A DNA stretch of 32,000 nt from Acinetobacter wanghuae (GCF_009557235.1 NZ_CP045650.1:2130001-2162000); one strand, 5' to 3'. Positions 20,727 through 32,000 are shown, counted from the stretch's first letter. A program made the numbers and translations. The notes: a model not told the origin generated them from the sequence alone.

Positions 20727-22271
20727 CTAAATAGACTCAAAGAGCTCTACCCATTTTTTTAGAATACTAGTACTAGAAAAGTTTTGACTCAGTAATTTGG
20801 CTTGTTCGCGAATATGACTCATATTCTGTTGATCATTCAAGTATTGAATAATTTTTTGAGCGTATTGCTCTACATCACCATCTGCAATCAAATAGCCATT
20901 TTGGTTATGTTGAATCATTTCACTTGGTCCATAACGAATATCGAATGAAGTCACAGGACAGCCATTAGCAAGCGCTTCCATGATCACCAAACAAAAGGAT
21001 TCACTCTGACTGGTTAATAACAACATTGAAGCTTCTTGGAGCACTTGATTTACATCCGAAACAAAGGGCTTTAAGAAAATATGATTTTCAAGTTTTTTGT
21101 CTTTAATCATTTTCTTTAAGTTCGAATACTCTAGTCCGAAACCAAATAAATCTAAGGTCGCTTGTGGATGATGCGTAACTACACGTTCAAAAATTGAAAT
21201 GAGTAAATCTAAGCGTTTTACTTTGTCATACCGTGCCAAAGAAACGAATTTATAGGGATCAAATGTAAGATAATAATCATCAGGTCTATGCGCCAATGCA
21301 TGTGGAATCACTTTATAGTTATTATGTGCACCATAAAGTTCTTCAATATCCTTTTTCTGTCGGTGAGTCAAAATGATCAAACCAGATAATTTATCGATAT
21401 GCCTAAAATATGGTGTGTAATTTTTATTCGGTGAACTTTTTATATCATTTGGATTATTATAGTGCGCTGCATGAATTGTACCAAACATGAAGAAATTCGA
21501 AGGAATATTATCCTTCAGTAAAAGATTAAAAACATTTATACGGTCGATCAAGAAAAGATATTTCTTCCGCGGGTCAATACATAATTTTCGCTGAATTGTA
21601 TATTGAGCCAATTCGATCAAACTCTGACAACTTTGGATGACCATCCCGTGTTCATCGAATAAATGTAGATTCTGAATCACACGTTTATCCTTGTTATAGC
21701 CGTAATGAACTTGGATAACGAGTTTGCCATTCACATCAAAAAAACTCTCAGCAATAACTTTTTTTTCATTCAAAATTTGATTTGAACATAGCTTTCCATA
21801 GTCATCGTAACGACTACGACTTACGACTTGTCCATTTTCAAAAAAGTTGATATGAATGAGCTTAGAGGATTTAAATACTTCATAGCGTTTGGTTCTACCC
21901 GATGTATCTTTATATATACGATTATTGATTGAATCAAATTCAACACCATTTTCAACACATGCGGCGATTGAACAAAAATAATCGGATGACTTCTTTTGGT
22001 AATATGAAAAAAGATTAATCAATTCGATATTTTTTGTATTTTTTAATAAACAATCGCTATATAATTTTTCAAAATTTGCACGTGTATTCAAATCGTGTTC
22101 AATGGTTAAAATTTTTATTTTGTAACCATAATTTGCGAGTAACTCTGCTCGACGCAACATTGAAACTACAATACCTGTCTTATTTTCTGATATTTTAGGG
22201 TAAAGCATAAATATTTCTTTATTGCTCATATTCATTATGTATCCATATAGATTTTTATCTAAAAACAACAC
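20727..22271 (-). CDS. GT4 glycosyltransferase of the GtfA/SdgA/SdgB type (O-glycosylation of Ser-rich or Ser-Asp repeat proteins)
   Basis: 514-aa ORF. The track start at 22271 is a GTG that overlaps the upstream stop by 1 nt; ATG starts at 22235 or 22229 are at least as likely.
- The C-terminal GT-B half has the E-x7-E block SESFCLVIMEALANGCPV followed by FDIRYGPSEMIQHNQNGYLI. I remember streptococcal GtfA as ...FDVRYGN..FI.DGKNGYL.
- The mid-region GTIHAAHYNN...NKNYTPYF...LIILTHRQKKDIE resembles GtfA VVVHAEHF...WNNFYDYQ...FIVATEAQK.
- The N-terminal ELINLFSYY resembles GtfA IIWLYNFF.
- The length of about 500 aa suggests an inserted domain between the Rossmann halves.
- There is no signal peptide. 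Confidence 0.75.
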   Translation of the reverse strand: MLFLDKNLYGYIMNMSNKEIFMLYPKISENKTGIVVSMLRRAELLANYGYKIKILTIEHDLNTRANFEKLYSDCLLKNTKNIELINLFSYYQKKSSDYFCSIAACVENGVEFDSINNRIYKDTSGRTKRYEVFKSSKLIHINFFENGQVVSRSRYDDYGKLCSNQILNEKKVIAESFFDVNGKLVIQVHYGYNKDKRVIQNLHLFDEHGMVIQSCQSLIELAQYTIQRKLCIDPRKKYLFLIDRINVFNLLLKDNIPSNFFMFGTIHAAHYNNPNDIKSSPNKNYTPYFRHIDKLSGLIILTHRQKKDIEELYGAHNNYKVIPHALAHRPDDYYLTFDPYKFVSLARYDKVKRLDLLISIFERVVTHHPQATLDLFGFGLEYSNLKKMIKDKKLENHIFLKPFVSDVNQVLQEASMLLLTSQSESFCLVIMEALANGCPVTSFDIRYGPSEMIQHNQNGYLIADGDVEQYAQKIIQYLNDQQNMSHIREQAKLLSQNFSSTSILKKWVELFESI

Positions 22272-23332
22272 TATATCTTGGCAATTTTTTTACGTAAGTT
22301 TTGCGGTAAAAAATTATTCTTATACGGTGGTTGAGCCTTAATTGCTAACCATTCATAATAATCGACCTGCGCACATGCAACGGAATATGCCATAAAGCCA
22401 ACACCAGGCCCAACATTAACCTCGTAAATATAGATATCTCCATCTTGTGTAATCCCAAGGTCCAGCCCAATTGAATCCAATCTCCACGCAAATTGTTTTT
22501 GGAAATTTTGATTAAAATCATCAAATAACTGTCTGATACCTAGATTAATTTTATCCACGCTACTTGGGTAGTATTGCTCTAAAAATAGCTGTTCTCGAGT
22601 GGTGATTAATGCCCCGAGCATACCATTTGTAATATCAATCTCTTTGTTTAGATTCACGTAAGGGAAAAATTTAATGAGCTGCCATTTGCCCTCTTTCCCA
22701 CGTGTAATATGCATTCTAAAAACAGTCGTCTGTCCTAAATGAGTTTCACTTTTTAGAAATGGACTAACTGTATAACCTCTTTTGAGATTTTTTTTTGTAA
22801 ATTCTTCTAATTCACTTAAATTATATTCATGCTGTTCTTGCATTTGTTTTACTATATATACATCAGCATTCTTTTTAATTGTAACAATTCCCTTACCCTG
22901 ATTACTTGCATCGGGTTTACAAATAATCTTGCTATATTTATTTAGGCTATTTTTAATCACTGAAAAATCATTAAGCTCTAAAACCTCGATTAAATACTTC
23001 CTCAACGGTTCAACCTTATTCATAATTTTATAAACCGTTTCCTTCGTACCAATCCGATTATTTGCAAAAGGAATAAGCTCTGCTAACTTTAAGTAGCTTT
23101 CCATATCCTCTTCTTTCACAGCCAAACGATTCTGCACAACATCTGGAAAATCAAAAATCTCTTCAACAACTTTATTATTCCTTAAAGTTTTGCCCTTAAT
23201 TCTCTTATTCTTAAAATCAATATTTTTTGCAATGAATACATAAGCTTCATGTTTTTTTTGCTGAGCAACTGAAATAAAAATTTTCTCTATATCGGTTATC
23301 ACCATATTCGGTTTTAATACACCAAAAATCAT
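22271..23332 (-). CDS. ATP-grasp enzyme, YheC/YheD-like family
   Basis: 353-aa ORF. Motifs are FDFPDVVQNRL (like the YheC/D ...PDV.Y.R), IICKPDASNQGKGI (the P-loop-like ATP-grasp strand), FRMHITRGKEGKWQL, and GLDLGITQDGDIYIYEVNVGPG (the ATP-grasp C-terminal Mg/ATP motif). It has a 4-bp overlap with the upstream gene. No signal peptide. Confidence 0.7.
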   Translation of the reverse strand: MIFGVLKPNMVITDIEKIFISVAQQKKHEAYVFIAKNIDFKNKRIKGKTLRNNKVVEEIFDFPDVVQNRLAVKEEDMESYLKLAELIPFANNRIGTKETVYKIMNKVEPLRKYLIEVLELNDFSVIKNSLNKYSKIICKPDASNQGKGIVTIKKNADVYIVKQMQEQHEYNLSELEEFTKKNLKRGYTVSPFLKSETHLGQTTVFRMHITRGKEGKWQLIKFFPYVNLNKEIDITNGMLGALITTREQLFLEQYYPSSVDKINLGIRQLFDDFNQNFQKQFAWRLDSIGLDLGITQDGDIYIYEVNVGPGVGFMAYSVACAQVDYYEWLAIKAQPPYKNNFLPQNLRKKIAKI

Positions 23333-31900: not shown

Positions 31901-32000
31901 TGTCTGAGTCGGAATCGCTGTCGCTATCAGAATCGGAATCACTGTCGCTGTCTGAGTCAGAGTCGCTGTCGCTGTCAGAATCGCTGTCAGAATCAGAGTC
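25974..32000 (-). CDS. Giant Ser-Asp-repeat, T1SS-type (Bap/RTX-like) surface adhesin; 5' end lies beyond the window (2008 codons visible)
   Basis: The 1005-aa track ORF begins at a GTG (cac, 28989-28991), but the same frame stays open upstream. The preceding codons are atc/aga/gtc/aga/gtc/gct, which read GAT TCT GAC TCT GAC AGC on the minus strand. The phase, with plus-strand codon starts divisible by 3, still reads Asp/Ser at 31980-32000. The C-terminal part has VCBS-like blocks ([14 protein letters not shown]...[11 protein letters not shown]) and a T1SS C-terminal target domain. Confidence 0.85.
25977..26336 (-). other. Type I secretion C-terminal target domain (about the last 120 aa of the adhesin)
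   Basis: [23 protein letters not shown]...[22 protein letters not shown]...[25 protein letters not shown]...[27 protein letters not shown]. The pattern (D.I.DF...GD.LDL..LL ... vd.dG.g ... i.L ... L) matches the T1SS C-terminal target domain of the VCA0849 subclass as I remember it. Confidence 0.7.
27114..28976 (-). repeat. Two tandem, diverged modules of about 300-320 aa within the adhesin, each ending in a VCBS-like block
   Basis: Module 1 (aa 6-326) and module 2 (aa 327-626) align block by block:
- AVDDLDSV / AVDDLYTA
- [24 protein letters not shown] / [24 protein letters not shown]
- [18 protein letters not shown] / [18 protein letters not shown]
- [10 protein letters not shown] / [10 protein letters not shown]
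- [14 protein letters not shown]...[25 protein letters not shown] / [14 protein letters not shown]...[25 protein letters not shown]. Confidence 0.8.
28992..32000 (-). repeat. Uninterrupted Ser-Asp dipeptide repeat tract, at least 1003 codons, truncated by the window edge
   Basis: Only the codons GAC/GAT (Asp) and TCT/TCA/TCC/AGC/AGT (Ser) occur. Strict alternation is mirrored in the shadow ORF 28958-31942, which alternates [T/I] with [L/Q/P/A/V] without exception. Higher-order identical DNA blocks lie inside the tract (see findings). Confidence 0.9.

Follow-up and report, generated by a model that had tools for sequence, protein, structure and literature searches.

An adhesin gene with dipeptide stalks and the neighbouring cassette

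Here we report the analysis of a 32,000-nucleotide stretch of the closed 2.77-Mb genome of Acinetobacter wanghuae (NZ_CP045650.1:2130001-2162000; hereafter the window, with positions counted from its first letter), in which a giant gene for a predicted type I secretion system (T1SS) adhesin with a long (Ser-Asp)n stalk is followed by a terminator and, downstream on the same minus strand, by a cassette of four close-packed open reading frames (ORFs). The cassette encodes a 550-residue protein, named P0002, a Peptidase_S11-like enzyme, a YheC/D-family ATP-grasp ligase, and a glycosyltransferase (GT) of family GT4, which together may tailor the adhesin stalk.

The 3' two-thirds of the adhesin gene occupy positions 25974..32000 (minus strand), and the gene continues past the window to G000:C1:2166731 of the host genome (L006:4731). 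Read on beyond the window, it comprises 10,758 nt and encodes 3,585 residues. The in-window ORF (25974..>32000, minus strand) consists of 1,003 residues of perfect Ser-Asp (SD) repeat followed by about 1,005 non-repeat residues. The SD run, which covers 28995..32000 (minus strand) in the window, has a full length of 1,046 residues (residues 1534-2579, about 523 dipeptides) and is written in varied codons, AGC, TCT, or TCC for Ser and GAC or GAT for Asp. Directly before it, outside the window at about L006:130-1983 (G000:C1:2162130-2163983), lies an (Asp-Ala)n run of about 616 residues or 308 dipeptides, encoded almost exclusively by GAT and GCC, GCG, or GCT; the two runs together form a dipeptide stalk of about 1,660 residues. 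The N-terminus, likewise outside the window, carries a BapA_N domain (PF22783; 98 bits, cut-off 27) and nine Big_6 immunoglobulin (Ig) domains, giving the domain order BapA_N, nine Big_6, (Asp-Ala)n, (Ser-Asp)n, and a C-terminal adhesin/T1SS region. The latter includes the BapA/Bap/LapF large-adhesin C-terminal region (NF045619; 26364..27866, minus strand; 302 bits, cut-off 180), VCBS-like modules upstream of it (24 bits, NCBIfam cut-off 15.5), and a type I secretion C-terminal target domain (TIGR03661; 25983..26225, minus strand; 49.4 bits, cut-off 17.6), and the score with the model of the ABSDF2314 family of large adhesins (NF045618) is 185.7 bits, below its cut-off of 975. By its C-terminal region, T1SS target domain, and BapA_N domain, the protein is a predicted Bap-family T1SS adhesin. 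Two alternative-frame or antisense ORFs of about 1,000 residues that run across the SD repeat, 28792-31998 (plus strand) and 28958-31942 (minus strand), are by-products of the periodic sequence and not genes.

No T1SS genes were seen flanking the adhesin gene in the host genome. A homolog of T1SS membrane fusion proteins is encoded at a distance of about 0.95 Mb (G000:C1:1209937-1211046, L054). It shares 58% identity with the membrane fusion protein of the Edwardsiella SD-adhesin operon described below, and represents a candidate part of the cognate exporter. This distance agrees with the published absence of linkage between bap and secretion genes in A. baumannii (PMC4647330).

The adhesin gene is separated from the cassette by an intrinsic-terminator-like hairpin (25931..25950, minus strand) with an 8-bp stem, six G-C pairs, and a T-run. 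Within the cassette, an 11-nt gap is followed by a 4-bp overlap and then, probably, by a 35-nt gap before the ATG of the GT gene. None of the four proteins contains a signal-peptide-like or transmembrane-like hydrophobic segment (maximum KD19 1.55), and all four enzymes are predicted to be cytoplasmic. No exporter, polymerase, or membrane component is encoded within the window's cassette. The GC content of the cassette is 0.334 compared with 0.406 for the genome, at the 0.7th percentile of 5-kb genome windows, and therefore points to horizontal acquisition. A 528-bp intergenic region with 24% GC (20199-20726) lies between the GT gene and an OprB porin gene, and may be an island boundary or a regulatory region.

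The initial annotation of this locus, made from the window alone, had described a giant minus-strand gene with at least 1003 residues of SD repeat, VCBS-like modules, and a T1SS signal, followed by a terminator and an operon of four enzyme genes lacking signal peptides. All these features were recovered, and the extent of the giant gene was revised: it continues beyond the window, where the remainder of the SD run and the entire (Asp-Ala)n run had gone unseen. The identities given to the four products also hold, as Pfam confirms Peptidase_S11, ATPgrasp_YheCD, and Glycos_transf_1 and assigns no family to the 550-residue protein. The proposed gene spacing stands for the 11-nt gap and the 4-bp overlap, whereas the 1-nt overlap at the third junction requires a GTG start of the GT gene and is replaced by the 35-nt gap if the ATG is used.

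Families and predicted folds of the cassette enzymes

The GT gene (20727..22271, minus strand) encodes a GT4 enzyme of the SdgA/SdgB/TarM/GtfA clade. Its probable start is the ATG at 22235, giving 502 residues, which is preferred by the deposited 502-aa protein and by homolog alignments over the GTG located 36 nt upstream at 22271 (514 residues); a length of 502 residues fits that of Sdg enzymes, about 500 residues. In addition to the Pfam match to Glycos_transf_1 (PF00534, 1.2e-34), the best curated matches are SdgA (2e-59) and SdgB (3.6e-54), followed by GtfA (2.4e-34; NCBIfam), and a single alignment joins GT residues 27-510 to positions 9-492 of the 496-position SdgB model. The best solved relatives in the PDB are SdgB (2.7e-44) and TarM (1.7e-38, full length, TarM residues 5-498), and then GtfA. 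All ten of the other GTs tested rank these matches in the same order.

The S11-like protein (266 aa; 23329..24129, minus strand) is a predicted acyl-serine enzyme of the DD-peptidase/transpeptidase type (Peptidase_S11, PF00768; 67.8 bits, cut-off 27.6). The SxxK (S52xxK55), SxN (S107xN109), and KTG (K213TG) motifs are intact and invariant in homologs with 27-49% identity. Its relatives in the PDB are DacB, PBP4, and the Streptomyces K15 DD-transpeptidase, which is of the same size. Unlike exported DD-carboxypeptidases, it has neither an N-terminal hydrophobic segment nor a PBP5-type C-terminal domain, and it scores far below every cut-off of the NCBIfam DD-carboxypeptidase models.

The third enzyme is a YheC/D-family ATP-grasp amide ligase of 353 residues (22271..23332, minus strand; ATPgrasp_YheCD, PF14398; 113.7 bits, cut-off 26.8). 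A sequence search of the PDB gave no match, and the ATP-grasp fold was confirmed in a predicted model with a mean local confidence (pLDDT) of 91. Its nearest folds are near-tied at Z 17-19 and include GshB (19.2), RimK (18.4), LysX/ArgX, graspetide macrocyclases, and TTLL glutamylases, most of which are ligases activating a carboxylate on a peptide or protein.

P0002 (550 aa; 24141..25793, minus strand) belongs to no Pfam or NCBIfam family by sequence, and its sequence matches in the PDB are at chance level. In the predicted model (pLDDT 85), an N-terminal α/β domain precedes a C-terminal (α/α)6 barrel of the AGE/cellobiose-2-epimerase/GH76 type. Residues 205-550 superimpose on the cellobiose 2-epimerase 4z4j with Z 27.5 and a root-mean-square deviation of 3.2 Å over 316 residues (Foldseek E 3.4e-5), and the best fold matches of the barrel are cellobiose 2-epimerase, other AGE-superfamily enzymes, and GH76, at 10-15% identity. 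The N-terminal 205 residues have no Pfam match, and the fold searches are dominated by the barrel. P0002 homologs share invariant His, Asp, and Arg residues. A sensitive search retrieved 1,564 relatives, many of which are N-terminal modules of proteins of 1,000-2,400 residues. Their fusion partners are a YheC/D ATP-grasp with a Mur ligase, PGA_cap with GT4, or PGA_cap with a Mur ligase and an ATP-grasp domain, that is, the same enzyme classes that occur as separate genes in Acinetobacter cassettes. A role of P0002 as a GtfB-like partner of the GT was considered and rejected because P0002 occurs widely without the GT. A 73%-identical homolog (P0012) is deposited under a metagenome-assembled genome of a Coxiella endosymbiont of Dermacentor nuttalli, a record that, given its Acinetobacter-like identity, may be a binning contaminant.

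Such a cassette might be an inactive or decaying hitch-hiker without a current function. Its low GC content suggests a recent acquisition, and internal stop codons are found in some homologs of other species (G052, G068, G149, G175, and G024); against this, none of the four ORFs in the window is disrupted, their spacing is tight, and the catalytic motifs of the cassette enzymes are kept among homologs at 27-72% identity. Short contigs from one RNA library match parts of the genes for the GT, the ATP-grasp ligase, and the S11-like enzyme without mismatches, a weak hint in the same direction, and the adhesin C-terminus is covered in two metatranscriptomes with an identity of 90-99%; such contigs from public runs are fragments that carry no strand, level, or operon structure and may derive from DNA carry-over, and they are not counted as evidence. 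We consider loss of function very improbable.

Co-occurrence with dipeptide-stalk adhesins

The occurrence of the cassette genes was surveyed in genomes of 200 other Acinetobacter species, where a genome was called SD-positive if its DNA encodes at least 10 consecutive SD dipeptides. P0002 is the most widespread cassette member (51 genomes), followed by full-length GT homologs (25), the ATP-grasp ligase (12), and the S11-like enzyme (7), and SD-repeat DNA is present in 26 genomes. The GT and SD-repeat DNA occur together in 20 genomes, the GT alone in five, SD-repeat DNA alone in six, and neither in 169. SD-repeat DNA was also found in 11 of the 12 genomes with the ATP-grasp gene and in all seven with the S11-like gene, and P0002 is present in all 25 genuine SD-positive congeners. 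In every genomic context that was fetched (about 16 loci), the GT gene adjoins a gene for a Bap-family adhesin. The GTs encoded beside stalk genes in congeners are only 25-40% identical to that of the window, which suggests a long-standing association between the GT and the stalk.

None of the five GT-positive, SD-negative genomes is a shown exception to the link between the GT and a stalk. The adhesin of G199 has a stalk of (SESLSASESA)n repeats resembling streptococcal serine-rich repeats (SRR), the adhesin of G100 carries a run of (S-D/T/N/I)n directly after BapA_N, the adhesin genes of G004 and G193 are N-masked, and G034 is unassembled around the locus, with a contig of only 1.9 kb. N-masked stretches lie inside the adhesin genes at L040, L042, L044, and L047 (G007, G004, G017, and G193), where SD counts are lower bounds. 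In draft genomes, the distance from P0002 to a contig end is typically 4-6 kb, which would be explained if assembly from short reads stops at the adjacent repeat.

The gene order of the window recurs in four of the 200 genomes (G052, G068, G149, and G175). Other Acinetobacter cassettes contain instead a gene for a hexapeptide acyltransferase, for a PGA_cap/CapA-like protein, or for proteins without an assigned family, and in sister cassettes PGA_cap holds the gene position of the S11-like gene. The cassette is thus modular and not a fixed four-gene unit, with P0002 as its constant member. In G086, which has a long SD stalk, P0002, PGA_cap, and the ATP-grasp ligase and lacks an Sdg-like GT, a gene for a DDE transposase (L036:6816-7685) occupies the expected GT position beside the type VI secretion genes tssF and tssG, which suggests that the GT was lost or replaced through an insertion sequence. 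In G169 (L037:1542-6879) and G141 (L038:4733-9116), the ATP-grasp gene is followed by four conserved genes without Pfam matches (about 595, 122, 236, and 520 aa) that may encode further tailoring enzymes.

Outside the genus, no GT match at 1e-30 was found in a class-level sample of 400 Gammaproteobacteria genomes, a result that indicates rarity of the GT in this class and not its absence, and a pattern scan of genome contigs for close GT relatives gave only three weak irrelevant matches. In Edwardsiella, a 33%-identical GT is encoded by the last gene of an operon composed of a BapA_N adhesin, an OEP-family outer membrane protein, an ABC transporter, a membrane fusion protein, and the GT, and the adhesin stalk consists of (SDSDSD[A/S]EGGAG)n. 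In Bacillus cytotoxicus, the gene for an LPXTG-type (SDSDAD)n protein stands beside genes for a P0002 homolog with 41% identity, for an Sdg-like GT that matches SdgA over its full length (2.2e-63), and for a GNAT-family protein. A giant LPXTG SD protein in Enterococcus is encoded two small genes away from a P0002 homolog.

These contexts bear on the possibility that the product of the entire cassette is a surface glycopolymer other than protein, which it would build or decorate. In this case, the GT would act in the manner of TarM on a polyanionic polymer, and the proximity of the cassette to bap would reflect a shared genomic island and not a substrate relationship. The full-length TarM match lies near that of SdgB, the GC content of the cassette is foreign, the terminator parts the cassette from the adhesin gene, and the NCBI label of P0002 is 'poly alpha-glucosyltransferase', all of which would fit such a product. 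However, genes for a flippase, a polymerase, a lipid-carrier enzyme, or the synthesis of nucleotide sugars are missing from the locus, and the GT stands beside genes for Ser-X stalks in divergent Acinetobacter clades, in Edwardsiella, where it lies inside the T1SS operon, and in Bacillus. To our knowledge, wall teichoic acid synthesis does not occur in Proteobacteria. A glycopolymer product appears quite improbable.

The other enzymes of the cassette recur at a second type of stalk. An Alcaligenes T1SS operon encodes an adhesin with a pure (Asp-Ala)n stalk of 1,484 residues (L057:95-4576) and ends in a fusion of P0002, PGA_cap, a MurF-like ligase, and ATP-grasp. Another T1SS operon, on contig L058, encodes a pure (Asp-Ala)n stalk of at least 370 residues (L058:3-1112, cut by the contig end) and ends in a fusion of P0002, YheC/D, and a Mur ligase. 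No Sdg-like GT was found in these two operons; (Asp-Ala)n has no hydroxyl group. For the ligase parts of the Alcaligenes fusion, the top matches are MurF (4.4e-65) and cyanophycin synthetase in its ATP-grasp portion (1e-58), and its PGA_cap part matches the peptide epimerase MslH (1.4e-22). The deposited Alcaligenes gene call (L057:96-4646) reads the repeat out of frame as a 1,516-aa protein of Met, Thr, Pro, Leu, and Gln, the real ORF being in frame 2 (2-6409), and many adhesins with dipeptide stalks probably go unrecognised in databases through frame errors of this kind. A metagenomic contig (L059:4131-14821) encodes a 1,606-aa fusion of P0002, PGA_cap, and GT4 directly after tamA and tamB.

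Two rules emerge from the genomic contexts: the Sdg-like GT accompanies Ser-X stalks, and the P0002/ligase module accompanies Asp-X stalks. In the window, the adhesin combines the two kinds of stalk and the cassette the two sets of enzymes. The most serious rival to stalk tailoring by all of these enzymes restricts action on the adhesin to the GT. P0002, the S11-like enzyme, and the ATP-grasp ligase would then produce or rework something else, such as a small peptide metabolite, a poly-amino-acid material resembling poly-γ-glutamate (PGA) or cyanophycin, or a part of the envelope, and would be island cargo at bap loci. Consistent with this, P0002 also flanks Ig-repeat Baps that lack a dipeptide stalk in the part seen (L043, L045, and L046). 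At two of its six loci outside Acinetobacter, one beside TamAB (L059) and one beside the dcw cluster (L060), P0002 has no stalk gene within 10 kb, so the P0002/ligase module is not exclusive to stalks. Furthermore, the P0002 fusion partners (PGA_cap, Mur ligase, and cyanophycin-synthetase-like ATP-grasp) are of kinds usually found in the synthesis of polymers or peptides, and the P0002 fold is that of free-sugar enzymes. On the other hand, the ATP-grasp and S11-like genes are nearly confined to SD-positive genomes, the fused module is the last large gene of two independent (Asp-Ala)n T1SS operons, and the cassette of the window includes none of the exporter, polymerase, or membrane functions mentioned above. 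On balance, we regard this restricted role of the GT as unlikely.

A proposed system for stalk tailoring and its relation to known systems

We propose a two-part system composed of a Bap-family T1SS adhesin with a dipeptide stalk, which would be exported by an unlinked T1SS, and a separately transcribed, horizontally acquired operon of four cytoplasmic stalk-tailoring enzymes; based on sequence and genomic context, we assign this interpretation a probability of about 0.6. Its pairing with genes for Ser-X stalks suggests that the GT probably glycosylates these stalks, and the ligase module probably targets Asp-X stalks. The substrate-plus-modifier module that the initial annotation had predicted in a diderm, coupled to T1SS and with extra enzyme classes, is supported by the family matches, by the survey, and by recurrence in Edwardsiella and Bacillus, and it withstood each of the computational checks suggested with it. 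The neighbourhood survey that it had called for connects the GT both with SD-repeat DNA and with Bap-family adhesin genes, and its placement of the GT in the Sdg/GtfA type, as opposed to a generic GT4, agrees with the best curated and best solved relatives. Its view of the cassette as a four-gene unit tied to SD proteins needs qualification: the GT, ATP-grasp, and S11-like genes do track SD repeats, but the order is rarely conserved and P0002 is also found beside SD-less Baps.

Several observations weigh against the proposed system, in addition to the P0002 contexts without stalks. The terminator between the adhesin gene and the cassette leaves their co-regulation no more than a possibility. 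The surveyed congeners are related and not independent, so that Fisher p-values overstate the association, and the GT is absent from six of the 26 SD-positive genomes, which implies that glycosylation is not obligatory. The GT scores 201.5 and 184.3 bits with the SdgA and SdgB models (NF047880 and NF047881), both with a cut-off of 800. TarM, whose acceptor is a polyanion and not a protein, is a relative of about equal closeness, and the GT shows no match to Pfam DUF1975 (PF09318) even at E<5. The SdgA/SdgB models are still its top-scoring families, homologs in other species reach 276 bits, and the GT in the window is encoded beside a long Ser-Asp repeat protein, the context characteristic of the Sdg type; by these sequence comparisons it is a member of the Sdg clade and not an equivalog. 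Finally, a decorated chain would have to pass the T1SS channel.

In the proposed two-part system, the four enzymes would tailor the stalk before or during export. In the cytoplasm, the GT would transfer a sugar, most likely an N-acetylhexosamine (HexNAc) as in SdgB, from a UDP-sugar to Ser residues of the SD run. The ATP-grasp ligase would activate a carboxylate as an acyl-phosphate and join an amino acid or peptide to a target that may be the stalk Asp side chain, the sugar, or another group. The most plausible acceptor would be the β-carboxylate of the stalk Asp, since (Asp-Ala)n offers no other reactive side chain. The S11-like enzyme could trim or transfer a (D-)aminoacyl group, and the AGE-like barrel of P0002 may act on a sugar or bind the sugar or chain. 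Together, these steps would yield a stalk that resists proteases, has a modulated charge, and varies antigenically. A more specific version, which we put forward only tentatively and with less confidence than the two-part system itself, is that Asp-X stalks are substrates of a new chemistry, in which ATP-grasp/MurF-like ligases add amino acids or short, possibly D-amino-acid, peptides to Asp carboxylates in a cyanophycin- or peptidoglycan-stem-like branching, assisted by P0002 and by S11-like or PGA_cap (MslH-like epimerase) enzymes, and with Sdg-type O-glycosylation in addition in SD stalks.

Enzymes of the SdgA/SdgB type are characterised by the use of UDP-GlcNAc to place GlcNAc on the serines of SD repeats. 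In staphylococci, SdgA and SdgB reportedly act with the SD-repeat adhesins ClfA and SdrC/D/E, in work ascribed to Hazenbos in 2013. The system proposed here resembles this one in having a cytoplasmic GT4 of the same clade, the top curated and structural match, encoded beside a gene with a long (Ser-Asp)n stalk. It differs in the diderm host, in the Bap-family T1SS adhesin without a Sec signal or LPXTG motif, in having one GT that scores far below the family cut-offs in place of an SdgB/SdgA pair, in the extra ligase, S11-like, and (α/α)6 enzymes, and in a stalk that is also (Asp-Ala)n. SdgB O-glycosylates the SD serines of ClfA and Sdr proteins (Kim 2021, PMC8561734). The GtfA/GtfB system of streptococcal SRR adhesins, which use accessory Sec, also includes a GT4 of apparently the same overall architecture and glycosylates Ser-X stalks in the cytoplasm. 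Its loci likewise contain variable extra tailoring enzymes, and G199 pairs the GT clade with an SRR-like (SESLSA)n stalk; in contrast, the window has no GtfB partner and no SecA2/Y2/Asp machinery, and export is by T1SS. TarM, the wall-teichoic-acid α-GlcNAc transferase, also has a long polyanion as acceptor, but this acceptor is poly(ribitol phosphate), and no such polymer or pathway is evident at the locus.

For the ATP-grasp ligase, the closest parallels by fold are cyanophycin synthetase, RimK, TTLL glutamylases, LysX/ArgX, and graspetide macrocyclases. The fused P0002 relatives match the cyanophycin-synthetase ATP-grasp domain and MurF. An Asp-rich polymer would be a plausible acceptor. 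Unlike the members of those families, the window enzyme shows no sequence-level membership, and the backbone here would be made by the ribosome.

Adhesins of this class were described by De Gregorio et al. in 2015 (PMC4647330), both in Acinetobacter, as 'beta-type BAPs' with SD repeats (ABSDF785 and ABSDF2314), and in Klebsiella and Enterobacter, where the SD-rich adhesins are lap-flanked. These authors cite the Sdg work only for the idea of a stalk spacer and make no mention of adjacent glycosyltransferases or ligases. The adhesin of the window shares with beta-type BAPs the BAP N-terminus, long SD stalk, and T1SS C-terminus, and differs in being a hybrid with nine Ig domains and both DA and SD stalks and in its low score for the ABSDF2314 family (186 bits, cut-off 975). 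In the open literature, with subscription-only papers outside the search, we found no paper connecting T1SS adhesins of Gram-negatives with GTs of the Sdg/GtfA type or with the P0002/ATP-grasp module. The system was therefore not wholly undescribed, as had been supposed initially: SD-repeat T1SS adhesins were already known (PMC4647330), and the link to the enzymes is absent from the literature searched. The pairing of the GT with stalks in diderms appears to be new, and the ligase branch is hypothetical and possibly a new chemistry.

If the GT glycosylates the stalk, cytoplasmic O-glycosylation of the Sdg/GtfA type would not be confined to Gram-positive Sec/sortase adhesins but would also occur on Gram-negative T1SS adhesins of the Bap family. 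We know of no characterised glycosylated T1SS substrate, and such glycosylation would prompt one to ask which chains can pass a T1SS channel. Should the ligase chemistry be true as well, the stalk would be a type I secretion substrate tailored in two ways and the first one known to be glycosylated. Stalk loci are broken or mis-framed in short-read assemblies and automated annotation, and are thus under-counted. The recurrent fusion of P0002 with ATP-grasp, Mur ligase, or PGA_cap at the ends of (Asp-Ala)n operons provides a testable function for more than 1,500 uncharacterised proteins and also suggests a role for the YheC/D ligases. Glycosylation of the stalk, if true, would bear on the protease resistance and antigen display of the biofilm adhesins of Acinetobacter and of fish-pathogenic Edwardsiella.

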